56,711 nucleotides of DNA from the IMG/VR virus record IMGVR_UViG_3300048587_000675, positions 1 through 56,711 of that record, one strand, 5' to 3'. Of this stretch, positions 23,271 through 55,366 are shown in pieces. The stretch is from a virus. Lineage: Duplodnaviria; Caudoviricetes. The number at the start of each line of letters is the position of its first letter. Positions within the stretch are counted from its first letter, which is position 1. Position numbers and translations under genes: made by a program. The notes beneath the pieces were generated by a model. The model was not told the DNA's origin. It worked only from the letters and a program-made list of their open reading frames with translations, and did no database searches.

Positions 23271-23762
23271 ATGAAGATGAAAAACGAAATGGATCTAAAA
23301 AAAGCACTAGAAGCATTAAAGTCTACTCGTCCAGGTATGTCTAGAGCAGTTGACAGTGAAGCTGAACGTGAGATGTTAAAGTCTACTCGTCCAGGTATGT
23401 CTAGAGCAATTGACAGTGAAGGTGAAACTGACATGCAGACTAAGGCTTTGCGAAGTGCATTAGAATCTTTGAAAAATATGCCCGAGGGATCTTTGTTCAC
23501 ACCTAGAACTGTTGAAGAGACAAGAATGGCACAAAGCGGTCCGATTACAAATGAAGAAGCAGACGATGCAATTCAACGACTATATCAATCTGAAGGATTA
23601 ACTGACGATACGCCTGCAATGCCTCCTCTTAAATCCAAGGCACCAATGATGGAAGAAGAGACTCCAGTTGAAAACGAAGGAATTTATGGAAGACTATTTG
23701 GTGGAAAGTCTACAAGACAAAAACAGCTTGATGAGCTTGAAAAGAAAGCTCGCGGTGAGTAA
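23271..23762 (+). CDS. Hypothetical protein with an internal tandem repeat
   Basis: LKSTRPGMSRA(V/I)DSE occurs twice. Confidence 0.6.
   Translation: MKMKNEMDLKKALEALKSTRPGMSRAVDSEAEREMLKSTRPGMSRAIDSEGETDMQTKALRSALESLKNMPEGSLFTPRTVEETRMAQSGPITNEEADDAIQRLYQSEGLTDDTPAMPPLKSKAPMMEEETPVENEGIYGRLFGGKSTRQKQLDELEKKARGE
23316..23421 (+). repeat. 46-bp direct repeat with 60-nt period (1 mismatch)
   Basis: ttaaagtctactcgtccaggtatgtctagagca(g/a)ttgacagtgaag at 23316 and 23376. Confidence 0.9.
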
Positions 23763-24589
23763 TGAAAAAGTTAAAAGCTAAGCTTAAAAAACAATTAAAA
23801 AACTTAAAATTAAAAAGTAAACTTCAAAGTGTAAAAGAACCTGCTTTGCATGCCGCAAGGAATGTTACAGTGTTTGTATTATGCTTAGTTACAGCATTAT
23901 CTTCTGCATTGGTTGCAGATAGAGGACATAAAGAATATCTAGAACATGTAATTGGTGATCAGGTATTATATGTAGAAAGTATGCCCGATAGCAAACTAAA
24001 AGGTTCAGCAACCGGGTTTCACGTAAAAGCAAAATCGGGTAATGTTGTATTTATCACAAATGCTCACGTTTGTGAATTAGGTAACGATAAAGGTATGATT
24101 ATGGTCCGTGATAAACTTAACAGTGGTCGAGGTGTTCCTCGTCGTATTCTAGAAGTATACGAACATAATGATCTTTGCGCAGTAGAACCACTCCCAGGGT
24201 ATAAAGGTTTAACAGTAGCCAGCGATCTAGATGTTGGAGAACCTGTATGGGCAATAGGATATCCATTAGGTGAGAGTTTAAATATTTCCAATGGTCGAGT
24301 AAAAGACTTTGGAACTACTACTCTTTCTGTTAATATCCCGATGGATCAGTGTGTCGGTCCTAATCTTCAAAAAGGACAGGTTCAATTCTGGTTTTTTATT
24401 GTTGATGTGTGTTTGATAACATATAAATTAGTTCAAACTGATATCGTTATTTATGGCGGAAATAGTGGAAGCCCAATGCTTAATATCTTCGGTAATGTAA
24501 CCGGTGTAGTATTTGCTGCTAACACTAGAACGAACTGGGGCCGATCCGTACCTTTAGAGCATTTAAACGATTTGCTTAGTGCATATTAA
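23762..24589 (+). CDS. Trypsin-like (S1C/HtrA-type) serine protease with N-terminal membrane/signal segment, no PDZ
   Basis: Triad motifs TNAHV, NDLC, GGNSGSP; AIGYPLG; hydrophobic VTVFVLCLVTALSSALV. Confidence 0.9.
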   Translation: MKKLKAKLKKQLKNLKLKSKLQSVKEPALHAARNVTVFVLCLVTALSSALVADRGHKEYLEHVIGDQVLYVESMPDSKLKGSATGFHVKAKSGNVVFITNAHVCELGNDKGMIMVRDKLNSGRGVPRRILEVYEHNDLCAVEPLPGYKGLTVASDLDVGEPVWAIGYPLGESLNISNGRVKDFGTTTLSVNIPMDQCVGPNLQKGQVQFWFFIVDVCLITYKLVQTDIVIYGGNSGSPMLNIFGNVTGVVFAANTRTNWGRSVPLEHLNDLLSAY

Positions 24590-26943: not shown

Positions 26944-27141
26944 TTAAATAATTCCTCGTTTTCTTAATGCTTTGTATAATATCTCATGATAATAGTAAAG
27001 AACACTGGAAAGAATGCTATAAATAACAGTTAATTCAATGGCAATTGAAAACTGGCCAGTATAAAGATATGTAATTGTAAATCCCATGGTCATGGACAAT
27101 AATCGCCACGTTATTGTTTTATATAAACTTTTCTTACTCAT
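26944..27141 (-). CDS. DUF2061-like membrane protein
   Basis: KSLYKTITWR...YYYHE pattern. Confidence 0.75.
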   Translation of the reverse strand: MSKKSLYKTITWRLLSMTMGFTITYLYTGQFSIAIELTVIYSILSSVLYYYHEILYKALRKRGII

Positions 27142-27740
27142 TTCTCTTCTTCTGATCTATAGAGATAATCGTCTGTTTCGCCAACAGACCAATTCGTTTC
27201 ATCCACAAGATATTCAGTAGTATTGATCTTGTATCCCATAGCAGCTGCGTTACCTTTAACAAGACTGCTGTCATTGAAGACAACACGATTATTTGGATAC
27301 GCAACCAAGTGACCGCTATCCAGTTCGATAATGTGAGCACATTTATGTTCGTTCGGAGTGTCTGAAAGATCACCTTGACCTTCGTAGTCAATCGTGAAAC
27401 GATAGATACCTTTTTCAGTTTTACCGTTTCTGAGTCTAACGCTACAGGCCATGCGCCGAAGAAATTTGAACTCTGTGACTGATACATTGGTAGAAATGTT
27501 TGACCATAACTGCGCGTCAGATAAAGATAACCATCCGTCTTCTTCGGTTGTTTTAAGCGCAGAGATAGGGAGTCCCCAGTAACTTGCTCCGCTTTCAAGG
27601 AGGACGTGGAACTGGAGTGCCTTGTGGTGCGGCGCTTTCGCCGCGTAGAGCCAGCCTCTTTCACTGCCTTCTTTTTTTTTGCCATCCGTCACTGCCCATC
27701 TTGCTACGTAAACTTCCATATATGGTAGATTAATATTCAT
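27138..27740 (-). CDS. Conserved phage hypothetical protein
   Basis: FHVLLESGAxYxxLPISA, YxFTID, EHK and YPNNR motifs; visibly GC-richer than flanks. Confidence 0.65.
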   Translation of the reverse strand: MNINLPYMEVYVARWAVTDGKKKEGSERGWLYAAKAPHHKALQFHVLLESGASYWGLPISALKTTEEDGWLSLSDAQLWSNISTNVSVTEFKFLRRMACSVRLRNGKTEKGIYRFTIDYEGQGDLSDTPNEHKCAHIIELDSGHLVAYPNNRVVFNDSSLVKGNAAAMGYKINTTEYLVDETNWSVGETDDYLYRSEEEK

Positions 27741-28225
27741 TTTGTATATAATTCCATAAAAGCGGCATTTCTTGCATCTTCTATATTCATACCCTGGTTT
27801 ATATACTTTTCAATCGCTCTTTTATAATCCAGGTATTCGATATTAGCGTCTTCAATTATATTATAATCTAGTCTTCTAATAACGTCAAAAATGTTGTCCC
27901 AGTTTTGATTTTCTGTCTTAACATTTTTTATAGTTTCATTTATTTTATAAAATCTTGTCTGTATATCACGATTTCTAGCATTAGTTAGATCGTATATGAC
28001 TTTTCTCTTAGCTTTACTTCTTTTTGTCTTTTTTGTTAACTTATTGCTATAGTATTCTTCATTGAATACAGAAAGCCATTCTTTATCTTTTTGACTTAAT
28101 TCTTTATGATAATCTTGATCAACTAAATAACGTGAGCCTCTGCTAAACGTTCTAGGCTCTAGACCCCAAAGTTTTTTAGTTTTTTGCCTCTTGACCGTCT
28201 TCTTTTTCTTTTTTTGACGGCTCAT
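27737..28225 (-). CDS. Hypothetical basic protein
   Basis: DQDY...KEWLSVFNEEYY...NARNRD; coupled to neighbours. Confidence 0.6.
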   Translation of the reverse strand: MSRQKKKKKTVKRQKTKKLWGLEPRTFSRGSRYLVDQDYHKELSQKDKEWLSVFNEEYYSNKLTKKTKRSKAKRKVIYDLTNARNRDIQTRFYKINETIKNVKTENQNWDNIFDVIRRLDYNIIEDANIEYLDYKRAIEKYINQGMNIEDARNAAFMELYTK

Positions 28226-28550
28226 ACTTCACTTTCTTGTTAACGTAAAATATTACGTTTCTTTGATTTATTTTATAATTTAACATTTCTTTCATAACTA
28301 CATTGAAAGTTTTACATTTTGCAATGTCTTTTTTTTCAATATTATTATCGTTACACCACGATTTATAGTCAGAGTGAAGAACAAACGCTTTAATTGCATT
28401 AGTTCCTTTATCAATATTACATGATTTAATCCATTTGTCAATACTAACATACGGATTAAATTCGTTTTTTATCTTATCTCCAGTATAAGATTGGTGCTTT
28501 CTAACGAAAGATAGCAGTTTAGCTATTTCACTCTTGTCCTGATTCATCAT
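28176..28550 (-). CDS. Putative winged-helix DNA-binding protein (D5 primase C-terminal-like)
   Basis: KWIKSC...LHSDYKSWC...KTFNVVM pattern. Confidence 0.45.
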   Translation of the reverse strand: MMNQDKSEIAKLLSFVRKHQSYTGDKIKNEFNPYVSIDKWIKSCNIDKGTNAIKAFVLHSDYKSWCNDNNIEKKDIAKCKTFNVVMKEMLNYKINQRNVIFYVNKKVKYEPSKKEKEDGQEAKN

Positions 28551-29325
28551 TAAGCTTCTTTAGCTCATTTTCAGTATTATCGTATTCTTTGATATCTTCA
28601 TGTTTATCTTCAATAAAATGAAGCTTCACTTCGGATAATATAGGCATTTTAGTTCTTTCAGAAAACTTCTTCATAAGTCTACCAATTCGTGAGTGATCAG
28701 AAGAAGTGGGTTTCTTTCTAGATCTAAACTTTGACCTTCCAGGGGTGTGTACGATTTTATCAACTAAACCAACCGACAAAGCTTCATCTGCAGTTAAATA
28801 TAAATCTCGTCTCACAATACTATCCCAGAATGTCTTATCTAACCATGAATTATTGGCATAGATTTCATTATATGCATCTTGAACACGTTCAGCTTCTTTT
28901 ACATAAATCTGCATATCAGTGGTTTTGCCTTCAAATCCATCACTACCATCGTGAAGCATAATTGTAGAATTCCTGGATACATAACGTTCATCGCAAACCG
29001 CCATAATCACAGTGGCAGCACTCATAATTGCGCCTCTACCATAAAACACAAATTTACATGGGCTTTCAAGAATCTTATCTACGAGAGCCAGCGAATGGTA
29101 TGGACTACCACCATAGCTACAGCAATGAATCTCAATTGGTTCCTTATTAGTAAGGTCCAAAAGCTTATCGATACCGCGCACGGCTAAGGCGATAGATTCA
29201 AAGCCGATATCATCATCTCCAGCGCCATCTAGATAGCCCAGGTAGACCCTTCTATGAAATAGGTCTACACCGTAGCTTAAATAGGTTTGGAGAATACTAG
29301 GATCTTTACTCCGCTTCCCCGACAC
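28528..29325 (-). CDS. clpP: ClpP-like serine protease (peptidase S14)
   Basis: RRVYL, SYGG, catalytic MSAA / MLHD / RRDLYLTADEAL motifs; start revised to GTG at 29325 with AAGGAG RBS. Confidence 0.85.
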   Translation of the reverse strand: MSGKRSKDPSILQTYLSYGVDLFHRRVYLGYLDGAGDDDIGFESIALAVRGIDKLLDLTNKEPIEIHCCSYGGSPYHSLALVDKILESPCKFVFYGRGAIMSAATVIMAVCDERYVSRNSTIMLHDGSDGFEGKTTDMQIYVKEAERVQDAYNEIYANNSWLDKTFWDSIVRRDLYLTADEALSVGLVDKIVHTPGRSKFRSRKKPTSSDHSRIGRLMKKFSERTKMPILSEVKLHFIEDKHEDIKEYDNTENELKKLNDESGQE

Positions 29326-29848
29326 GCTTTTTCTCCTTATAAACACGATCAACAGCAATTGTGACAACGTAGTTAGATTTTAAAGCGTCGCTATGGAGTG
29401 TAACCTTTTTAACATCACCAGGAACGGTTCCGGTAAGAGCATCAATAATTTCCTTGGGGAGCTGATCATTATCAGAATTTCCAAGGACAATATAAGATTC
29501 TTGAGTTGGTACGCCTTCTGTTTCTTGCCCTTCAACTTCTTCTTTAACACGAAAACGAATAGCATTACCAAGAGCGGCGGGAGTTTCTGCTAATTCTAGT
29601 CCATATAGTTTTTCTTGTACAGACCAGACTGCTTCATTAATCTCTTCTTCTTTAACACCAAGCTTAGTTACAAGCAAAGTTTCAAGAGCGTCCATTTTTT
29701 GCTTAATGGCAATAAGACTCTTCTTAGTTTCATTTGTTAAAACTGTAGCAGCTTCGTAAACTTCAGCTTTAATATCGTCTTTTGTTTGAGCACGAGCAGC
29801 CATCAATACTGCTTGTTGAAAACTCATATTAGATTTAGGACTAGCCAT
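29306..29848 (-). CDS. Trigger-factor-like protein (linker helix plus degenerate FKBP domain)
   Basis: VKEEEINEAV...PAALGNAIRF...EG...YIVLG...LPKEIIDALTGTVPGDVKKV...VTIAVDRV follows the trigger factor linker/PPIase pattern; directly upstream of clpP. Confidence 0.6.
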   Translation of the reverse strand: MASPKSNMSFQQAVLMAARAQTKDDIKAEVYEAATVLTNETKKSLIAIKQKMDALETLLVTKLGVKEEEINEAVWSVQEKLYGLELAETPAALGNAIRFRVKEEVEGQETEGVPTQESYIVLGNSDNDQLPKEIIDALTGTVPGDVKKVTLHSDALKSNYVVTIAVDRVYKEKKRVGEAE

Positions 29849-30144
29849 TATTTATTCTCCTTTTTTTGGTCACATTTTAAACAAAATTCATAGCGTTCAT
29901 TTAAACCAGTATAACATCTCCACTGATGAGCGCAAGACGTATTCGTAGGTTTATTTACAGGCATGTTTTCAAGTTCCTGTTCAGCTTCAAAATCCCATGG
30001 AAAGTAAGTTTTTTTAACTGGAGGTTTTTTAGAACTATCATCGTCATCATCCCAGTTTTGAAAGAAAGCGGCAATACTTTGTTTAGATGAAACGTCTAAA
30101 CTTTTAATCATTTGATGAATATATTTAAAGTTTAATTCTTCCAT
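29848..30144 (-). CDS. Hypothetical protein with C-terminal CxH...CxxC motif
   Basis: CAHQW...YTGL...FCLKC. Confidence 0.55.
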   Translation of the reverse strand: MEELNFKYIHQMIKSLDVSSKQSIAAFFQNWDDDDDSSKKPPVKKTYFPWDFEAEQELENMPVNKPTNTSCAHQWRCYTGLNERYEFCLKCDQKKENK

Positions 30145-30688
30145 GTTTTCTTGCTTTCATCAACTTTTTATTCCACATGTTCATTTTCATTGTACTTACT
30201 TTTGTACAGATTGGCTTTCCAAGCATATGCTCAATCTCATGCTGGATACATTCAGCTTCTACTCCAGTAAGAATGGCGGTTTTATCTTGCCAGTTCATGT
30301 CTTTATATCTTACCGTAACTTCTGTATGTCTGTCAATTGGCTCTTGAAATAAAGGCAAAGAAAGACAACCCTCTTGCATTTGTACAAGTTCACCTTCAGT
30401 TTCAATAATAACTGGATTAATCATTTCAACAACTTGTCTTTTTGAGGGATTGACAGGATCTATTGAATTAGTGTATAATACACAAAATTTCTTATGTACA
30501 CCAATTTGAACTGCAGCTAGACCAACTCCTCGATATTCTTCCATGATTTTAATCATTGGTTTTACCATTTTCTGAAGCTCTGGAAGATCTTCTTGTACAC
30601 AGTCTTCTGATGGCTTTAAAAGCCTCGAATCGGGCCAAGTAACTAGTTGATAAATACCCTTTGGTAGTACATCAGGAAGTTGTAACAT
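30125..30688 (-). CDS. def: Peptide deformylase
   Basis: GVGLAAVQIG, EGCLS and QHEIEH motifs; basic C-terminal helix. Confidence 0.95.
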   Translation of the reverse strand: MLQLPDVLPKGIYQLVTWPDSRLLKPSEDCVQEDLPELQKMVKPMIKIMEEYRGVGLAAVQIGVHKKFCVLYTNSIDPVNPSKRQVVEMINPVIIETEGELVQMQEGCLSLPLFQEPIDRHTEVTVRYKDMNWQDKTAILTGVEAECIQHEIEHMLGKPICTKVSTMKMNMWNKKLMKARKHGRIKL

Positions 30689-30689
30689 A

Positions 30690-30989
30690 TTATTTACCCC
30701 TTTTATCTGAAGGAATTAACCATAGTTTTATTTCAAACTCTTCCATCTTTCTGTCTACTTTTACTTCACAATTACTATAACTAGTGATCATTCTATAATG
30801 CTCTTTATTAGCAGATTTAACAATAACATGACCGGTTACTATGCAGCTATCGCCCCTTAAATTGGTAATATCCTGATCTTGTTCTTTTAAAAAAAGAGTT
30901 GTATTCTTACTCGCAGCACAGCCTGCTAGAATAATATTAAAAGTTAAAAATATAAGTAATTTCATTATTATTTTCTTTCTGTATTTCAA
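30690..30989 (-). CDS. Putative lipoprotein
   Basis: Signal peptide with LAGC lipobox; true start probably the second Met (MKLLIF). Confidence 0.6.
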   Translation of the reverse strand: MKYRKKIIMKLLIFLTFNIILAGCAASKNTTLFLKEQDQDITNLRGDSCIVTGHVIVKSANKEHYRMITSYSNCEVKVDRKMEEFEIKLWLIPSDKRGK

Positions 30990-31419
30990 ATCCGAGTTTT
31001 TGATGTAAATATTTTGAAGCCTCGTTGTCTTTTTTTACAATACCCCGTAGTTTAGTATATCCTTTATTTCTCGCCCAATCAATAGCTAAGTCTAACATAA
31101 TTTCAGACCAACCCTTACCTCTGTGAGCTTCTGCAATAAAAAAAGCCCATTCTTTTGTATTTTGATCATCATCTTTCATATCATTTCTAAATTCAACATA
31201 ACCGATGATTTCATTAGAAGACCCAGTTTTAAAGACTAATTTTGGATAGTTAGTATATTTATATACAGCTTCAAATTCTTCCCAGCTTACAGGCATATTA
31301 CTGTCAGAAAATCTCACCACCTCTGGGTCATTTCTCATTAACCAAACCTGTTTTAAGTCACCCTCTTCCATTTGTTTGATTAATTGCAAAAAACTTCTGT
31401 TTTCGACATTATTTGACAT
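30937..31419 (-). CDS. GNAT N-acetyltransferase (RimJ/RimL/PseH-like)
   Basis: RNDPEV, IIGYV, HRGKG, NEAS...KLGF motifs. Confidence 0.85.
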   Translation of the reverse strand: MSNNVENRSFLQLIKQMEEGDLKQVWLMRNDPEVVRFSDSNMPVSWEEFEAVYKYTNYPKLVFKTGSSNEIIGYVEFRNDMKDDDQNTKEWAFFIAEAHRGKGWSEIMLDLAIDWARNKGYTKLRGIVKKDNEASKYLHQKLGFEIQKENNNEITYIFNF

Positions 31420-32417: not shown

Positions 32418-34412
32418 TTAATCTTCAAATAGAGCAAATCCGCTGCCTTTTTTGGGTTTAGCAAAATCAAGCTTAAACCTAGTGGCATGATCTAGAAGCT
32501 CTTTAACAACCAGTGAGATTGATTTACTATGCAATCTACTTCGAATTACAATCTCTTGCAAATGCGCAATAGAAAATGAATTTACACCGGGATTGTTCTT
32601 TTCATCAAGAGCATCCTTCTCTTCTTTTGTTAGCTTTCTTTTAGCAATAAATTCAACCAGTGAGAGTCGTTCTTTCTGAGAAGGTGGCTCAATTTCAAGC
32701 ATCATATCAAAACGGCCAGGCCTTTGGGCCAAGGAAGCCATGAGGTTCTCAGGGTGATTGGTTGTAGAAATAATCATAGTTGGAATTTTAAACACGTTAT
32801 TAATACCATCGAGGAGGTTTAAAAGACTACTAGAAACTTCATCTCTTCGGCTATATCCCTCGTGACTACTTCCACCAATGTCTTCAATTACTAGAATAAG
32901 CTTAGTTGCTTCTGGTGTATATTCACTATATTTAGTAAAGAATTTAAATACAGTAGACGCGTCAATTTCAGAAGTTGGCCAGTTAATAACAACAGTACCA
33001 GGATCTTTATCTTTAATATCCTTTGCCGCTTGCATGATACTACATGTTTTACCGCAGTTATGAGTAACAGTAAAATCTTCCATTAAATATAAATGATCTT
33101 TGTCTACTGTAAATCCGTAATAATCATCCTCTGGCAACAATTCTAATTTAAATCCATTACGTAAAACATTTTTAATTTGTTTTCTTTTTTCTGCTTTCTT
33201 TCGCTTTAATCTAGAGGGGATCATGTCAATGTCACCTAAAATGGCAACTCTCCAATAAGTACCTTCAGTACCATTTTGACTTTTTTTCTTACAACTTTTA
33301 ATATATGCAGCAAGTCCTAATGATCTTGATAAATATACAACGTCATTTGCTAATTGTTTATTTACTGAAACGTAGTCAAATCTTCCTTTGTTTAAATTTC
33401 CATCGGTGTCTATAATTCCTGCCAAGAGTTCAAGTCTTTGTTGTCTAGAGCTTCTTAGATATTTAACAGGAATATGTTTGTTTTTAATAAGATTCAATGC
33501 TTTTAGTGCATTAAATGCGCGATTTTTTCCGACCTTGGGACCACCATTACGAGCCGTTATAGTATATGTTGAAGATTTATTATTAAGCTGAGTTTGTACT
33601 CTTACATCATGACCAACAACATTAGCATAATCATACCATTCTTGTTTGATTTCGTTATCCATAGTTGTTATGGCAGCCAAATTAGAACTACCATCTCCAA
33701 GCCACAGTCCAAGAACATAGGGATTAATTTCTAAATTTTGTTCTTTAAATTCTACTCCGACTTTATAAAGTTTTAATTTTTCATCATGCTTTGAAATGAT
33801 ATTATTTATTTCTATATTAAAAATTTGATTTTTTACAGAATGAACTAAACTTAAAATATGACCTTTATTTACAATAAAAGAATCACCCTTGGTTGGTATA
33901 ACTTTTACCATTTCTTGGCGACCTCTAACAAGTTTTAAAACCTCTCTGGGTTGACTGTCTGGTCCCATGAGTTTATCACCAACTACAATATCTTGAACAA
34001 GTTTAATTGAACCGTCATGCATTAAAATCCCTTGATTTTTTGCGTGACATCCAGGAAGGCCATATAACAATACGCCTCTCTTTTTTGGTTGACCTAGCTC
34101 TTCATATACAGATAAATTGTTAAAAAACATATCAGCTTCATTTAAAATCATGGCCGTATTTGTAACAGTTGTAAGAAGCTCTCTTTCAACAAATTCCATG
34201 GGGGCAAGTTCAACTGCCGTGCTGGTTTTATTTAAATTATAACTACCGGGTTTGATTACAATAGGCTTTTGTTCTTTTTCTTCTTTTACATAATCAAACT
34301 GTAATACGTAACCCTGGTCCTGTAGAGCAAGGTCGGACTCCGGAATAGTGTCAACCTTTCCTTCGTAAATATCTTTTAAAGTTGTTTTGTTTTTTAATTT
34401 AAAATTACCCAT
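32418..34412 (-). CDS. AAA+ ATPase interrupted by an intein (~333-aa extein)
   Basis: RGVLLYGLPG|CGKT Walker A, LVIED Walker B, LLNLLDG, TTN and RPGRFD motifs. Confidence 0.9.
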   Translation of the reverse strand: MGNFKLKNKTTLKDIYEGKVDTIPESDLALQDQGYVLQFDYVKEEKEQKPIVIKPGSYNLNKTSTAVELAPMEFVERELLTTVTNTAMILNEADMFFNNLSVYEELGQPKKRGVLLYGLPGCHAKNQGILMHDGSIKLVQDIVVGDKLMGPDSQPREVLKLVRGRQEMVKVIPTKGDSFIVNKGHILSLVHSVKNQIFNIEINNIISKHDEKLKLYKVGVEFKEQNLEINPYVLGLWLGDGSSNLAAITTMDNEIKQEWYDYANVVGHDVRVQTQLNNKSSTYTITARNGGPKVGKNRAFNALKALNLIKNKHIPVKYLRSSRQQRLELLAGIIDTDGNLNKGRFDYVSVNKQLANDVVYLSRSLGLAAYIKSCKKKSQNGTEGTYWRVAILGDIDMIPSRLKRKKAEKRKQIKNVLRNGFKLELLPEDDYYGFTVDKDHLYLMEDFTVTHNCGKTCSIMQAAKDIKDKDPGTVVINWPTSEIDASTVFKFFTKYSEYTPEATKLILVIEDIGGSSHEGYSRRDEVSSSLLNLLDGINNVFKIPTMIISTTNHPENLMASLAQRPGRFDMMLEIEPPSQKERLSLVEFIAKRKLTKEEKDALDEKNNPGVNSFSIAHLQEIVIRSRLHSKSISLVVKELLDHATRFKLDFAKPKKGSGFALFED
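33057..34049 (-). mobile_element. Intein with LAGLIDADG homing endonuclease (331 aa)
   Basis: Starts CHAK, ends VTHN, +1 Cys; LGLWLGDG and LLAGIIDTDG motifs. Confidence 0.92.
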
Positions 34413-37549: not shown

Positions 37550-39466
37550 TTACTCTTCTGATTCACCGGATGGCTCGCCAACTAATTTCATGCCGTCTTT
37601 TGTAATATCTATCTGAATTTTTTTATGTAAATTTGCCCCGTCAAATAAATGTGATTTGTAGAGCGTCCACTGTACACGAGCACCAATTCTTACCTGTTCA
37701 CCTTTAACAGTCTTTTCAAGCCACTTGAAGCGACTAGTTTGAAAAGTAAGCGCACTGAAGAAGTCTACGGCATTGCCGCCTGCGTTTGTGCGACCCGGCG
37801 ACCCCATGTTGGCATAGGTCTGGTTAATAACCAGGATGTGAATTTTATCTTTGTTTAGCTTAGGAACAAGTCTACGAAAACCTCTCTTGTTTACCTTAGC
37901 GGCAAGACCCATCTGCAGACTGTCGTCAACGTCAGTATCAGCCTCCGCCCTGGCTGGAGTATTACCGAGGCTATCAAAAACAACTAGAATTCGACCATCT
38001 GGGTCTGCTTCTTTAATGTATTCAATATACTTATCAATACCATCATAAGCATCTTCCAGATAGTCGGGTCTGATAAGAGCAATTTGTTCAGGATCTACAC
38101 CGCGAGAAGTAAGCCGTGCCCCAGTGGTCTTTTTCTCTGTATCTACCAAAATAACATGCACCCCTTGGGCTTGGGCATTCTTAATAGCTTCAATAGCAAA
38201 AGATGTATTATGGGTAACTGTAAAGTCTCCTAAGAGGAAAAGAGGGTCTTCTACTAAGGTAAACCCGTAATAGTCTCCTACCCCCAATGATTCAATCTTA
38301 AAGCCTGTAGTTAATGGATTTCGGTTACCATTGAAAGGAAGTGCTTTCTTTCTTTGCACACGACATGGAATTACATTTGTGTTTCCAGAGATTGAAATTC
38401 GATAATACTTTCCAGAAAAGCCGGTGGATTTAATAGTGCCGATTTTTTTGGTTTTAGTGACTCGAAATCCTAAAGAACCTGCAAGGAAAACTATTTGATC
38501 AGCTAAGGATTCAGATTTCTGAATTATCTCATAACAGCTCTTTCCTGTCGCATTAAGATAACCATCGGTATCCAATAGCCCCGCAAGCAATAAAAGCCTT
38601 TTCTCCCTGGAATTTACTAGATAGTTAGTCGGTATATATTTTTCACCATTCTTTACCAGTTCATTTCGAACAAAGTTTAATAATGGATTTAACCTGGAAG
38701 ATCCAGAGCCGGTGCTAGTGACGAATTCGTGTTGAGGACACTTTGCTGCGGCGTTTACGACTTCCTGATGTTGAACTTTGCGATAAATTAAGTTATTTTT
38801 ATTTGCAAATTCTTGATAATACTTGTCAAGCTCGGGTTCATTATTCGTAATCTGTGTTTTAGTTCTTGTACCATCACCAAGCCACAGTCCAACCCAGTAT
38901 GGATCATATTCAACAGGCTTATCTGTAAATTCAACTTCAGTTCTATGTAGTTTCAGATTATGTCTAGTTGTAATATTACTATTTAAATATTCACTAACTG
39001 ATAGATTTACAACTTCCCCAGTGCGTGTGTGTTTCAAATTAAGTATGTGTGACTCATTACACGACCACTCAAGGTTACCGTAGTTTGGAATAATTTTATA
39101 CATCATTTCTTGACCGCGCCCCAGTGCACCTACAGTTCTAGGTTTACTATCAGGACCCATGAGTTGATCGCCCACTTGAACGTCTTGTACCATTTTAATA
39201 GTACCGTTGTACATAAGAACCGGAGTATCTTTGGCTAGACACTTACCAGAATCGGTATTACCTGCAATCATAAACACATAACCGAATGGCAAACCCATAA
39301 CGCCCGTAGCTTCTTTAAACCATGGGTCTAGAACAACGAAGTCTTCTGGTTTGCTTGGAGTAATGATATCAGATCCTGTACCAAAGACTTGAGCGGAACG
39401 CTGGTCGTCTTTAAAACTTTTACGTATTTTCTCAGCTATTTTATTTAAATCTAGTTTTTTAGTCAT
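37550..39466 (-). CDS. recA: RecA/UvsX-like recombinase interrupted by an intein (~293-aa extein)
   Basis: GLPFG, AGNTDSGK|TS Walker A, VDTE, VVFDS, INQ and GGNA motifs. Confidence 0.88.
   Translation of the reverse strand: MTKKLDLNKIAEKIRKSFKDDQRSAQVFGTGSDIITPSKPEDFVVLDPWFKEATGVMGLPFGYVFMIAGNTDSGKCLAKDTPVLMYNGTIKMVQDVQVGDQLMGPDSKPRTVGALGRGQEMMYKIIPNYGNLEWSCNESHILNLKHTRTGEVVNLSVSEYLNSNITTRHNLKLHRTEVEFTDKPVEYDPYWVGLWLGDGTRTKTQITNNEPELDKYYQEFANKNNLIYRKVQHQEVVNAAAKCPQHEFVTSTGSGSSRLNPLLNFVRNELVKNGEKYIPTNYLVNSREKRLLLLAGLLDTDGYLNATGKSCYEIIQKSESLADQIVFLAGSLGFRVTKTKKIGTIKSTGFSGKYYRISISGNTNVIPCRVQRKKALPFNGNRNPLTTGFKIESLGVGDYYGFTLVEDPLFLLGDFTVTHNTSFAIEAIKNAQAQGVHVILVDTEKKTTGARLTSRGVDPEQIALIRPDYLEDAYDGIDKYIEYIKEADPDGRILVVFDSLGNTPARAEADTDVDDSLQMGLAAKVNKRGFRRLVPKLNKDKIHILVINQTYANMGSPGRTNAGGNAVDFFSALTFQTSRFKWLEKTVKGEQVRIGARVQWTLYKSHLFDGANLHKKIQIDITKDGMKLVGEPSGESEE
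38207..39241 (-). mobile_element. Intein with LAGLIDADG homing endonuclease (345 aa)
   Basis: Starts CLAK, ends VTHN, +1 Thr; VGLWLGDG and LLAGLLDTDG motifs. Confidence 0.92.
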
Positions 39467-47132: not shown

Positions 47133-47921
47133 TCAGTTATTCGGAATTAGTAAAGTCTTACTTTTTTCTTTATCTAAAAGATTTGTTCTACTTTTAGCTT
47201 CAGAACCACACTTGGTACATTTATATCGTTGGTATTTGCCAACGCTAGTAAATTTATAACCTTTCTTTATGAAAGAAGTACTACCACATGCACATACGTT
47301 TTCTACAGAGTCTGAGTAAACGTTAAAATTAATACTGCTATCCCAGGGTTGAAGTTTATTATAAAGTTCTTCCGTAGCTAAAATATCTTGAATATTGTAT
47401 TTTTTCATTTCAGCCCAAGCGGCTTTATTACCTTTTAAACATTCTTTCCATAGTTCAAAACCAGGAAATTTTTTATGAGTTAATTTTTTATGTTTTTTAC
47501 ATAGTTTTTTAGATAGATACTCTAATTTATTTGAGGTAAAGTTAAAATATTTTTTAGCAATCCTCATGGTGTCTATTTGTTTAAAACTAGAAGGAGGTTG
47601 CATTCCATGGATAAGCATTCTTGCTTTAATCCGTTTAATATCAAAAGAGGTAGAATTTTGACCTATAACAATATCTGAAGCATCTAAAAGATTCCATAGG
47701 TCTTCTAGCAAAGGTTTGTCATTTGATATGTTTTTTGCTTTACTTTGGTCTTTATAATAGACTTTTTTCTCGTTTAAAAATTTAGCAGAATAAGAAAGTA
47801 AATGCCAGTCTTCTACTACCTGATTCAAGGCAACGTTTTGATCAAATAAACCCCAAGTATATGAAATTATTGGGCTTGTCTCAATATCAACAATAAGAAT
47901 TCTAGGAAAATTAGATTTCAT
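47133..47921 (-). CDS. RNase H-like (DnaQ/YprB-type) exonuclease with C-terminal Zn ribbon
   Basis: VDIET, GQNSTSFD, IDT, YNIQD, CACG...CTKCG motifs. Confidence 0.85.
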   Translation of the reverse strand: MKSNFPRILIVDIETSPIISYTWGLFDQNVALNQVVEDWHLLSYSAKFLNEKKVYYKDQSKAKNISNDKPLLEDLWNLLDASDIVIGQNSTSFDIKRIKARMLIHGMQPPSSFKQIDTMRIAKKYFNFTSNKLEYLSKKLCKKHKKLTHKKFPGFELWKECLKGNKAAWAEMKKYNIQDILATEELYNKLQPWDSSINFNVYSDSVENVCACGSTSFIKKGYKFTSVGKYQRYKCTKCGSEAKSRTNLLDKEKSKTLLIPNN

Positions 47922-48474
47922 TTTTAACCTTTCGATTTATCTGTGCTTGTCGTCTTGCTTTTGTCCACGGTTTGCCCTTAAAACGCGCAGAAACTTTTAA
48001 TCTGTTTTTGTTAGAAATTGTTCTTCCTATCAAAGCTTGACTTATTTTGTTTTTATGTTCTTCAGTGAAAATTCTTGTTGTCCCTATTTTTGCAGCGGAT
48101 AGTTTTTTCTTATGCTCATCTGTAAATTTTCTACCTTTTAGCGCTTTACTTAGTTTCTTCTTTGTTTTATTAGATCTCTTAATACCCAATACGCTTCTTG
48201 CCTGTTTACACATATTATATTCTGGATTCAGCTGGTCTATATACTGTTGTTCTAAAGATATTAATCTATCTGGATTACAATATTCTATAACTTCATAAAT
48301 AAATACTTTTTTACCATTCTTATTATAAGTTCTTTGCAAATGAGTATTCGGATGTGTATTTCTTTTGAGATCAACTTTATGACGAGTAATGCGCATAGTG
48401 ACATTAACAGAAGAACCGATATACATTTTGTTATTCTGTATATTAGTTATTTTATAAATACCGCTTTTACTCAT
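47911..48474 (-). CDS. Free-standing GIY-YIG homing endonuclease with NUMOD3-type repeats
   Basis: SGIYKI...YIGSS...R...H; EHKKKLS / EHKNKIS repeats. Confidence 0.92.
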   Translation of the reverse strand: MSKSGIYKITNIQNNKMYIGSSVNVTMRITRHKVDLKRNTHPNTHLQRTYNKNGKKVFIYEVIEYCNPDRLISLEQQYIDQLNPEYNMCKQARSVLGIKRSNKTKKKLSKALKGRKFTDEHKKKLSAAKIGTTRIFTEEHKNKISQALIGRTISNKNRLKVSARFKGKPWTKARRQAQINRKVKNEI

Positions 48475-54442: not shown

Positions 54443-55366
54443 TTACCAGAAGTCTTTAAAAATACCTTTAAGTTGATCATTTAAATGTTTTTTACCATGA
54501 AGATCTTCAGTATCTTCTTCTGGACCTTCATTAGAATTTGTAATTTTGTGTACTTTTTCTACTGCAGTCTTTAAGTCAACACCAATGCAGAGTACACTAA
54601 TAATAAGATCTTTCATTTGATCTATTGTTAAACCTTCTGTAAGCTTAACCCACAGTTCAATGTCTACTTTTTCATCAGGAAATGTTTTATTTTCAATAAA
54701 TATACGTCGAACTTCAGCTGAAGGAAGACCAACTTCGATTACAGTAGCAAATCTGCTTGGTCTATCTTTAATACGTGAAGGAATCTTATCTAAATAGTTT
54801 GTAGTAGCTATGTAAACAATATTGTCTACTTGCATTTCACCATCTAGAAGACTTAAGAAACTTCCCTCATCTCTATAAAGAAGTTGATCGAATTCTTCGA
54901 AAACTGCTAGAATCCTTTGATCACCTTGAATTTCTCTAATAATCTTAACACTTTCACTTAAAAGAGATGGACTAGGACAAAAGAAAACAATTCCACCTTT
55001 TTTAATTTCAGATTCAATGAGACGAATAATAACACTTGATTTACCAGTTCCATGTGAACCATGCAAAAGAATGCCTCTTTTATAAGTCATTCCTCTGCGT
55101 TCATAACGAAATCGCACATCTTTATTCCAGAAGTTATCAATCTCTTTAATAATATCTTCAGAAACGAAACTCGGAAGTTCTATCAGATTATCAGTCATGA
55201 TAGACATTGGTTCAAAGTAAATCTCACCAGATTGTGTCATACTAATAGTATATAAACCTGGGTTCATACTAGGGATTTCTTGAACTTTTCTAGTAGGAAA
55301 AAACCTACCTTCCATTTCCCTAAAATGATGATAAATTTTTTCAGTTTTATTGATTAAATTAGTCAT
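54443..55366 (-). CDS. AAA+ ATPase (second copy, intein-free)
   Basis: KRGILLHGSHGTGKS, VFEE, FLSLLDG, ATTN and RPSRF motifs. Confidence 0.9.
   Translation of the reverse strand: MTNLINKTEKIYHHFREMEGRFFPTRKVQEIPSMNPGLYTISMTQSGEIYFEPMSIMTDNLIELPSFVSEDIIKEIDNFWNKDVRFRYERRGMTYKRGILLHGSHGTGKSSVIIRLIESEIKKGGIVFFCPSPSLLSESVKIIREIQGDQRILAVFEEFDQLLYRDEGSFLSLLDGEMQVDNIVYIATTNYLDKIPSRIKDRPSRFATVIEVGLPSAEVRRIFIENKTFPDEKVDIELWVKLTEGLTIDQMKDLIISVLCIGVDLKTAVEKVHKITNSNEGPEEDTEDLHGKKHLNDQLKGIFKDFW

Follow-up and report, generated by a model that had tools for sequence, protein, structure and literature searches.

An FKBP-fold protein, a ClpP-family peptidase and a classical-clade AAA+ ATPase encoded close together in an uncultured tailed phage

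Genes of the cluster

IMG/VR virus record IMGVR_UViG_3300048587_000675, analysed here over its whole length of 56,711 bases (the window), is a linear record from an uncultured tailed phage with a CheckV completeness of 71%. On its minus strand lies a tightly packed run of genes for a GNAT acetyltransferase, a small lipoprotein, a peptide deformylase (PDF), a 98-amino-acid (aa) Cys/His protein, a 180-aa FKBP-fold protein and a ClpP-family serine peptidase, with a gene for an AAA+ ATPase upstream (Table 1). An earlier reading, made from the letters of the DNA without database searches (the sequence-only reading), had proposed that these genes form a single module. All six open reading frames (ORFs) of the run that it listed were found, with junctions that overlap by 1 to 62 nucleotides or leave gaps of 1 to 8 nucleotides as judged from ORF coordinates, and the AAA+ gene lies, as it had said, about 1 kb upstream of the GNAT gene, that is, about 3 kb upstream of the ClpP gene.

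A search of 1.84 billion representative proteins yielded 35 relatives of the 180-aa protein. Compared with PDB structures, a family profile (34 relatives) matched the peptidyl-prolyl isomerase (PPIase) domain of Escherichia coli trigger factor (TF; 1l1p) at 3.2e-5 and T. maritima TF at 1e-4, with weaker matches to FKBP2 and SlyD-type FKBPs. TIGR00115 matched the protein at 3.6e-7 over profile positions 118 to 211 (29.4 bits against a cut-off of 180.2), and hhalign equated residues 51 to 156 with E. coli TF residues 116 to 218 (E value, 3.4e-6). An AlphaFold2 model (predicted local distance difference test score [pLDDT], 89.4) predicted two helices, the first about 54 residues long, followed by a small beta-rich domain, and its best PDB matches by Foldseek were TF 3gty (7e-6), 1t11 and SlyD FKBP domains. 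Neighbours in the Atlas, which we take as leads only, also lie toward TF and FKBPs. The claim of the sequence-only reading that the ORF at 29306 encodes a TF-like protein with an FKBP fold therefore stood when checked with Foldseek and profiles, and the PPIase domain of TF is its closest counterpart by family profile, hhalign, TIGR00115 and Foldseek.

The 180-aa protein, for all its TF-type head domain, is nevertheless not a trigger factor. It gave no match to the Trigger_N and Trigger_C domains, and its alignments with TF begin at TF residue about 110 to 116. Residues 10 to 81 were modelled as two helices in place of the ribosome-binding domain of TF, and the chain, 180 aa long against 432 aa for E. 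coli TF, ends about 8 residues past the FKBP domain, without C-terminal arms. PF00254 (FKBP_C) did not match the window protein at E ≤ 0.01 and matched 11 of 34 family members weakly (best, 1.2e-4). At the one pocket position compared, the equivalent of TF F198, the protein has Ile134, and the family column holds mostly I, L or V with a minority of F. F198 is essential for the PPIase activity of TF according to passages of an article on TF and ClpXP (PMC7804408), so PPIase activity of the phage protein is doubtful. FkpA/Mip-type FKBPs are built alike, their FKBP domain lying C-terminal to a long helix at the N-terminus, and FkpA and LpMIP were among the Foldseek matches; however, they ranked lower, their full-length root mean square deviation (rmsd) was 18 to 19 Å, their FKBP domain is longer than that of the phage protein, and sequence profiles favour TF over Mip.

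The ORF that follows matched PF00574 at 4.6e-22 (79.2 bits against a gathering threshold of 20.2; 80.2 bits in a six-frame search). Its real start is suggested to be the GTG at 29325, which would give 265 aa, because its relatives are 258 to 288 aa long. Across 34 family members, Ser102 and His125 are invariant and Asp174 is nearly so (at least 90%), and these positions align with the catalytic residues of solved ClpPs, a two-residue offset of the Ser in one alignment having been settled by hand. The AlphaFold2 model (pLDDT, 85.9) has a predicted handle helix at residues 135 to 158. Foldseek superposed it on cellular ClpPs over the whole protomer, with a template modelling (TM) score by target of 0.82 to 0.91 and an rmsd of 1.4 to 2.0 over 174 to 189 columns, at a sequence identity of about 25%. 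The intact triad noted from the sequence alone is thus a conserved one, in what is modelled as a complete ClpP protomer. Beyond the protomer, an extension of about 70 residues with an EYDNT motif at its end is conserved in 34 relatives and has no counterpart in cellular ClpPs.

The AAA+ ATPase matched PF00004 at 2.2e-7 (31.8 bits against 21.2). Within its Walker A motif we found an intein with a homing endonuclease (Pfam Hom_end_hint, 2.6e-19; Hom_end, 3.7e-9; LAGLIDADG_3, 1.5e-7), a feature absent from the sequence-only reading. The intein boundaries come from a BLASTP alignment to an intein-free homologue of 340 aa in locus L060 (loci are numbered as in the surveys below), to which the exteins are 64 to 77% identical; removal of the intein would restore GLPG-CGKT in Walker A. 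The best NCBIfam matches were PAN, FtsH and CDC48, and the 60 PDB matches listed for the L060 homologue comprised CDC48, AFG2, p97, NSF, YjoB, VAT, PAN and Rpt, with no Clp ATPase among them. By these comparisons the protein is assigned to the classical AAA clade and not to the ClpX/ClpA type (HCLR clade). Walker A (GxPGxGKT), a Trp (W154) aligned to the pore loop of CDC48 D2, the RPGRFD arginine-finger region and a C-terminal Gly are invariant in 24 homologues, and the homologue aligns to both D1 and D2 of CDC48. From Walker A, the pore-loop Trp and the RPGRFD region, it looks like a protein unfoldase. The C-terminal Gly belongs to a tripeptide, [MLIVFAT]-G-[FLIMVW], found within the last 16 residues of all 51 homologues scoring at least 350 bits; this tail recalls the IGF docking loop of ClpX, a resemblance that we treat as a lead only. 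Cultured phages of the collection held no close homologue (identity, ≤33%). AAA+ genes of about 663 to 669 aa, presumably intein-bearing, also occur in L090 and L214 to L218.

Table 1. Positions of the main and accompanying features, in window coordinates unless stated otherwise
Feature	Position	Strand	Basis or content
FKBP-fold protein, 180 aa	29306-29848	-	long N-terminal helix, then a C-terminal domain like the TF PPIase 'head'
ClpP-family serine peptidase	28528-29367	-	PF00574; conserved C-terminal extension of ~70 aa
Classical-clade AAA+ ATPase, 664 aa encoded, about 333 aa spliced	32418-34412	-	PF00004; ends ...KGSGFALFED
Intein with LAGLIDADG homing endonuclease, 331 aa (residues 122-452)	33057-34049	-	inside Walker A, between GLPG and CGKT; intein C...HN (GLPG/C...HN/CGKT)
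Peptide deformylase, 187 aa	30125-30688	-	PF01327, TIGR00079; three metal-site motifs
98-aa Cys/His protein	29848-30144	-	C-terminal Cys cluster C..C...C..C
Small predicted lipoprotein	30690-30989	-	signal peptide and LAGC lipobox in the translation
GNAT acetyltransferase, 160 aa	30937-31419	-	Pfam Acetyltransf_1 (8.6e-15), Acetyltransf_3 (1.7e-14), Acetyltransf_4
Three co-directional ORFs (124, 162 and 200 aa), downstream of ClpP	27138-28550	-	accompany the cluster in close relatives
Virion and lysis genes	24-25,556	+	Ig-like or tail-fibre proteins; 1,497-aa internal-virion-protein-like ORF; tail fibre with endosialidase-chaperone domain; trypsin-like protease; endolysin
Replication and accessory genes	56 kb down to 25.5 kb	-	helicases; family-B DNA polymerase with separate exonuclease subunit; primase-helicase; intein-bearing UvsX-like recombinase; SbcCD
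160-aa ORF of relative G022, in the ClpP slot (FKBP-like to 124-aa ORF)	L157 16719-17201 = G022 62162-62644	+ (L157); - (G022)	HELAH...GWxH motif, basic N-terminus

Recurrence of the genes in other phages

Searches with the 180-aa protein alone gave no match by tblastn against 50,697 phage records, and single-protein scans of IMG/VR with either this protein or ClpP found no relative, so that alignments were needed. Scans of IMG/VR and of metagenome contigs with ClpP alignments returned 111 loci, 92 of which were distinct after a crude filtering for duplicates that compared the identity of the final 150 residues; ORF calling was naive. At least 7 kb was present on both sides of the gene in 30 of the 92 loci, and within 10 kb of ClpP these well-flanked loci held an AAA+ gene in 20 cases, a second ClpP paralogue in 8, a PDF gene in 6 and an FKBP-like gene in 1. 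Among all 92 loci, an AAA+ gene was near ClpP in 38, at a median distance of 1.9 kb and at ≤80 bp in 7; the two genes are directly adjacent and co-directional in L010, L015, L016, L073, L080, L089 and L096. A second survey, centred on the AAA+ gene, gave 65 distinct loci, of which 41 were well flanked and 34 of these scored at least 350 bits. Within 10 kb, a strong member of the ClpP family was present in 16 of the 34 and another ClpP-like gene in 6. Other neighbours in most AAA+-bearing loci are genes for DNA ligase, a MoxR-like ATPase, nucleases, polymerase and helicase. The ClpP family and the classical-clade AAA+ ATPase are thus frequently, and not obligatorily, associated.

The FKBP-like gene was found in eight loci beyond the window, reached through ClpP (L002, L003, L006, L060 and L061), through the FKBP-like alignment (L133 and L134) or through the AAA+ gene (L157). 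In seven of the eight, a ClpP-family ORF follows 7 to 386 bp downstream on the same strand. Since the ClpP of L134 is of a prohead-like type (96/94 in the tree described below), the link of the FKBP-like gene appears to be with ClpP-fold peptidases in general. A subset of 10 rows of the FKBP-like alignment (A6), used as scan query, returned 2 loci only, so that the neighbourhoods covered are those of a minority of the 35 FKBP-like clusters. Within the loci covered, the pairing of a TF-head-like FKBP protein with a ClpP-fold peptidase is a real and recurrent phage association.

Much of the cluster recurs in L060 and L061, which share 68% ClpP identity with the window: their order is AAA+, lipoprotein, PDF, Cys-rich ORF, FKBP-like, ClpP and three ORFs, without the RuvC-like and GNAT genes. 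The lipoprotein has homologues in these two loci (about 1e-19) and in L157 (1e-15), the 98-aa Cys/His ORF is kept in the same three (about 1e-7 to 1e-8), and the GNAT gene has a homologue among the other loci in L157 only (4e-29). Homologues of the 124-, 162- and 200-aa ORFs follow ClpP in unchanged order in L059 to L061, and two of the three are present in L157. The 200-aa ORF (window 27138-27740, minus strand) matched phrog_3704, labelled 'ferredoxin', at 2.1e-43, had no Pfam or NCBIfam match, and is conserved in L059 to L061 at about 1e-100 to 1e-120. The conservation expected of the module was therefore borne out in part: the FKBP-ClpP link (7 of 8 loci) and the AAA+-ClpP link (20 of 30) extend further, but the cluster as a whole is confined to close relatives, with PDF in 6 of 30 loci and GNAT in a single relative.

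The closest look at a complete relative is offered by L157, which is part of G022, a record of 84,867 bases with terminal repeats and 100% completeness. G022 shares synteny with the window, with identities of 62% for the polymerase, 72% for the primase-helicase and 85% for the UvsX extein, and has the order AAA+, RuvC-like, GNAT, lipoprotein, PDF, Cys-rich ORF, FKBP-like, 124-aa ORF and 162-aa ORF. No ClpP was found anywhere in G022 by PF00574 or by the ClpP-family profile with filters off. Because G022 retains both the AAA+ gene and the FKBP-like gene, their products do not strictly need a phage ClpP. In the place of ClpP, G022 carries a 160-aa ORF (Table 1) whose HELAH...GWxH motif is invariant in 9 homologues of 60 to 79% identity; the ORF gave no Pfam (precomputed) or PDB match and, going by the motif, may be a small zinc peptidase that replaces ClpP.

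ClpP and head maturation

As the sequence-only reading had noted, the ClpP gene lies outside the virion arm: it sits in the minus-strand replication arm, between the PDF and FKBP-like genes on one side and exonuclease/phosphoesterase genes on the other. In L059 to L061 and L157, too, the cluster has replication genes around it, with the virion genes on the other strand. In the window, a 71%-complete fragment, we recognised no gene for a portal, terminase or major capsid protein, so its head module is probably in the missing part.

Elsewhere the pair is found among head genes. In L006, a record of 119 kb and 100% completeness, terminase and portal are followed by two ORFs and then by FKBP-like, ClpP, Cas4-like nuclease, another ClpP-like gene, phrog_1028 head protease and major capsid, which places the FKBP-ClpP pair between portal and capsid genes. 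This order of gene families is repeated in L002 and L003, whose own portal and capsid genes are unannotated, and L133 and L134 were likened to L006 solely by the sizes and order of their ORFs. These loci are the main support for a different explanation, in which the FKBP-like protein and ClpP would be a capsid-assembly pair: ClpP, targeted to the prohead by its C-terminal extension, would process prohead or virion proteins, and the FKBP-like protein would help assembly as a chaperone or in the manner of a scaffold. On this view the genes would have moved to the replication arm secondarily, and the AAA+ ATPase would either be unrelated or serve as an assembly chaperone. Were this explanation true, the pair would represent a novel chaperone-protease unit for head maturation. 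The Cas4/PD-(D/E)XK-like nuclease of L006 (phrog_1706, 8e-23; L006 10794-11597, plus strand), which lies between the two ClpP-family genes in the head-gene module, recurs as family 90 in L002 and L003.

Scores against model libraries also lean slightly toward head proteases. The best PHROG matches of the window ClpP are the 'head maturation protease' families phrog_94 (3e-27) and phrog_2976 (1e-25), and in NCBIfam the Clp_rel_HeadMat model (NF045542) scored 74.8 bits (cut-off, 120) against 67.6 bits for the best ClpP model, both under their cut-offs. Orthology with cellular ClpP was not indicated by the NCBIfam equivalog TIGR00493 (50 bits; cut-off, 308.6). The PHROG 'head maturation' families, however, also match clearly non-structural ClpPs, such as the ClpP encoded near GroEL in L040, and such scores are judged to leave 'ClpP' versus 'ClpP-related head protease' undecided. 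PF03420 (T4-type prohead protease) had no match anywhere, controls included, and is hence uninformative.

We built two trees from the family, its paralogues, two prohead proteases defined by context (Bordetella phage PHB09 and Enterococcus phage phiEG37K, with genes between portal and major capsid), two non-structural phage ClpPs (Bacillus phage KLEB27-3 and Microcystis phage Mel-JY01), E. coli ClpP and 8 ClpPs from 4 genome bins. In a quick tree of 56 rows, the family (99) adjoined a long-branched group containing the two prohead proteases, with a Shimodaira-Hasegawa-like approximate likelihood ratio test (SH-aLRT) value of 87. In a careful tree that omits the three longest branches (VIR_L057, FAM_L133 and VIR_L058), the neighbours of the family (100/99) were the non-structural phage ClpPs, weakly supported (65/82, 59/72), and the prohead proteases, joined by the FKBP-adjacent ClpP of L134, were placed elsewhere (96/94). 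The grouping with prohead proteases that the sequence-only reading had named as a threat to its model thus appeared in the quick tree and not, on weak support, in the careful one. Both trees separate the family as a clade from 17 cellular or cellular-like ClpPs, so we regard it as a distinct phage clade whose deeper placement is unstable between trees. Recent capture of a bacterial tig-clpP operon was set aside, the family not being nested among cellular ClpPs.

Compared with the two reference prohead proteases, then, the window ClpP has a similar ClpP/S14-like fold and triad and similar NCBIfam and PHROG scores, and its L006 relative lies between portal and capsid genes; it differs in that its own gene stands among replication genes and is absent from a complete relative, in missing the NF045542 cut-off and in its unstable place in the trees. 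G022 has its own head module at about 19.7 to 33.5 kb on the plus strand (portal, a 159-aa crotonase-like ORF and the major capsid protein) and no ClpP; this lineage therefore does not depend on an early-arm ClpP for capsid maturation, and ClpP is an accessory in it and not its capsid protease. In addition, L006 and all five AAA+/ClpP phages tested have a separate phrog_1028 match, which in the five is weak (1e-9 to 1e-13) and far from ClpP; no phrog_1028 match was found in the window, from which the head module is missing. Together, these observations make capsid assembly an unlikely role for the pair. Undetected by PF00574, the crotonase/enoyl-CoA-hydratase-like ORF of G022 (phrog_1128, 8e-8; L236 8546-9025, plus strand, equal to G022 28546-29025), located between portal and major capsid, is a candidate for a prohead protease with a ClpP/crotonase fold.

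Other ClpP genes turned up in the surveys. A second, shorter ClpP paralogue (about 220 to 250 aa) lies within 10 kb in L004, L008, L009, L014, L023, L032, L033, L034 and L072, and one group of paralogues branches nearer cellular ClpPs in both trees; the window has a single ClpP. Mixed rings of the ClpP1/ClpP2 type would be a possibility in the phages with two paralogues. L040 (9710-14019; also L044, L046, L049 and L054) encodes a 239-aa ClpP, an unannotated ORF of ~640 aa and a full-length GroEL-like chaperonin (phrog_5725, 1.7e-137) downstream of DNA polymerase, and this group looks like another phage proteostasis cluster.

A possible accessory protease and its rivals

The reading that we tentatively favour, at a probability of roughly 0.45, is that the cluster encodes an accessory phage AAA+/ClpP protease with an FKBP-type partner. 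From the identities, predicted folds, catalytic residues and neighbourhood counts given above, we infer the physical interactions, substrates and timing that follow. The core would be a self-compartmentalising serine peptidase of the ClpP family, whose gene is preceded and translationally overlapped by that of an FKBP protein resembling the TF linker and 'head'. The FKBP-like protein may serve the peptidase as a dedicated chaperone, adaptor or assembly partner, as TF assists ClpXP, and the spliced classical-clade ATPase may be the unfoldase that feeds ClpP, possibly docking on it through its conserved C-terminal hydrophobic-Gly-hydrophobic tail. Host proteins (in takeover or defence) or phage proteins whose removal has to be timed would be the likely substrates. 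PDF would be an ordinary phage auxiliary gene that shares the transcription unit, and the GNAT, lipoprotein and Cys-rich ORFs would be lineage-specific passengers.

The nearest bacterial arrangement is tig-clpP-clpX. Passages of Rizzolo et al. (2021, PMC7804408) describe TF as a ClpXP adaptor, with tig adjoining clpP or clpX in many bacteria, and its effect on ClpXP as independent of PPIase activity, which fits a phage protein with Ile at the F198-equivalent position. In both arrangements a gene for a TF-type FKBP domain lies directly upstream of the ClpP gene and an AAA+ gene is nearby. The phage FKBP protein, however, has 180 aa with a helical N-terminus and the head only, the phage ATPase is of the classical type (CDC48/PAN/FtsH-like) without a ClpX-type zinc-binding domain, and the phage ClpP forms a separate clade with its C-terminal extension.

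Proteasome-type AAA ATPases (PAN, Mpa/ARC and CDC48) dock on the 20S particle through C-terminal HbYX tails, whereas ClpX and ClpA dock on ClpP through IGF/IGL loops. To our knowledge, the known ClpP partners (ClpX, ClpA, ClpC and ClpE) all come from a single AAA+ clade and all use internal IGF-type loops for docking. The phage ATPase resembles the proteasome-type enzymes in its single-ring classical AAA module with an N-domain, pore-loop aromatic residue and short hydrophobic C-terminal motif; it differs from them in a tail that is hydrophobic-Gly-hydrophobic (IGF-like) and not hydrophobic-Tyr-X, in a neighbour that is ClpP and not 20S, and in its Walker B motif. A more specific version of the favoured reading, a three-part protease made of a classical AAA+ ATPase docking through its IGF-like tail, an extended ClpP and a TF-head FKBP adaptor, with host ClpP or the HExxH replacement taking over in relatives that lack ClpP, is rather doubtful. 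Were it true, a classical-clade ATPase that joins ClpP by its C-terminal tail would show Clp proteases to be built in a further way, linking the Clp and proteasome styles of docking, and a TF-ClpP partnership reduced to the TF head would be a minimal system for the handover of substrates from an FKBP chaperone to a protease. No account of a phage FKBP/TF-like-ClpP pair, or of any classical-AAA ATPase as a partner of ClpP, emerged from searches of open-access main texts. Phage-encoded ATP-dependent proteolysis is a plausible and barely explored route for host takeover or removal of defence proteins.

Several results weigh against an accessory AAA+/ClpP protease. Ten of the 30 well-flanked ClpP loci have no AAA+ gene, and their 10 records, 5 of them at least 94% complete, lack it genome-wide; as a positive control, the same search found the gene in 3 of 3 records known to hold it. 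Conversely, 12 of the 34 AAA+ loci have no ClpP within 10 kb. In favour of the link, 4 of 5 tested records of this kind had a PF00574 match elsewhere in the genome. The tail motif is conserved equally where no phage ClpP is nearby (20 of 20 homologues) and is therefore not specific evidence for docking on phage ClpP. In each of the 24 aligned homologues, the four hydrophobic residues of Walker B are followed by E-D and not by D-E (about residues 508 to 513 in the window protein). To these are added the retention of the AAA+ and FKBP-like genes in ClpP-less G022, the head-module position of the pair in L006 and its likes, the slight lead of the 'head maturation protease' models and the quick tree. 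Co-folding of two copies of the L060 ClpP with the L060 AAA+ ATPase (a 24-row alignment each) scored 0.00 against a mark of 0.32 and bears neither way on binding.

The loci without an AAA+ gene also fit a rival in which the phage ClpP would work with host unfoldases (ClpX, ClpA or ClpC) or in mixed rings with host ClpP, thereby redirecting or blunting host proteolysis; the FKBP-like protein would then be a ClpP adaptor, and the AAA+ ATPase would be functionally independent and may dock on host ClpP where phage ClpP is absent. The absence of AAA+ from all 10 of those records speaks for this proposal, as do the superposition of the ClpP model on cellular ClpPs over the whole fold and the retention in G022 of an AAA+ gene with its tail motif and no phage ClpP. 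It is also in keeping with passages of Iyer et al. (2021, PMC7824862), in which non-structural ClpPs of large or jumbo phages are patchy and proposed to act against the host, and patchy phage ClpP and ClpS are proposed to act on or with host systems. The window family resembles those ClpPs in being patchy and outside virion modules, and KLEB27-3 and Mel-JY01 are its nearest neighbours in the careful tree, with weak support. It differs in its own C-terminal extension; in the available text of that article (PMC7824862), FKBP, trigger factor and deformylase have 0 occurrences and no classical-AAA partner of ClpP is described. The low identity to cellular ClpPs, the conserved extension without a cellular counterpart and the adjacent, co-directional AAA+ and ClpP genes of several lineages argue against dependence on host unfoldases, which we consider improbable.

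The sequence-only reading had gone further, with GNAT, PDF, the TF-like protein and ClpP acting jointly at the ribosome exit tunnel in the processing and triage of nascent chains. The four genes do form one tight co-directional run, its order is kept in G022 and, minus GNAT, in L060 and L061, and bacterial PDF is ribosome-associated, as textbooks have it. The TF-like protein, however, has neither the N-terminal ribosome-binding domain nor the C-terminal arms of TF, GNAT recurs in only one other locus, only 6 of the 30 loci have PDF within 10 kb of ClpP, and synteny in one lineage does not show joint function. The wider GNAT-PDF-TF-like-ClpP set is lineage-level synteny and not a conserved system, and the single-module model is very improbable.

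The PDF identified in the sequence-only reading scored above the curated cut-offs of both Pfam (PF01327, 9.1e-39; 133 bits against 22.8) and NCBIfam (TIGR00079, 114.9 bits against 103.95), also matched phrog_2890, and has all three metal-site motifs in its translation (GVGLAAVQ, EGCLS and HEIEH). Phage-encoded peptide deformylases were reportedly described by Frank et al. in 2013. They are well known in phages according to passages of another article (PMC7162821), and the window PDF is an ordinary full-length member, with nothing notably different. The lipoprotein likewise proved to be as described, with a signal peptide and lipobox. The label 'RimJ/L-like' given to the GNAT found no specific support: no RimI, RimJ or RimL signal was seen in NCBIfam (rimI TIGR01575, 24.3 bits against a cut-off of 86.4), where the best matches were assorted GNATs far below their cut-offs, and Pfam matched only generic GNAT families. 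We take it as a probable generic GNAT and not a member of a conserved set. The 98-aa Cys/His ORF had no Pfam, PHROG or Atlas family match and no informative Atlas neighbour.

Further observations concern the rest of the window. Its polymerase is only 26 to 28% identical to those of the nearest cultured phages (Salinibacter and Nostoc). No host was drawn from ClpP-family members on contigs in Saccharibacteria, Bacilli and Cytophagales bins, which look like phage contigs. A scan for promoters and terminators gave 54 promoter-like sites against 38.6 expected in this AT-rich DNA and carries no information. A trypsin-like serine protease (Trypsin_2, 4e-15; window 23762-24589, plus strand) is encoded where the virion arm ends, immediately ahead of the lysis genes, and is 45% identical to an ORF at the equivalent place in G022. 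The UvsX/RecA-like recombinase gene (window 37550-39466, minus strand) contains a second intein with a homing-endonuclease domain, its product being 638 aa long against 291 aa for the G022 homologue, and an ORF for a GIY-YIG-type homing endonuclease (phrog_314, 1e-30) lies directly upstream of the gene for the separate exonuclease subunit of DNA polymerase (phrog_403, 3e-99), both within window 47133-48474 on the minus strand. A second AAA-type ATPase of 307 aa (window 54443-55366, minus strand; phrog_7485 and phrog_2376) shares several PHROG matches with the intein-bearing AAA+ ATPase and is 49.5% identical to an ORF of G022.

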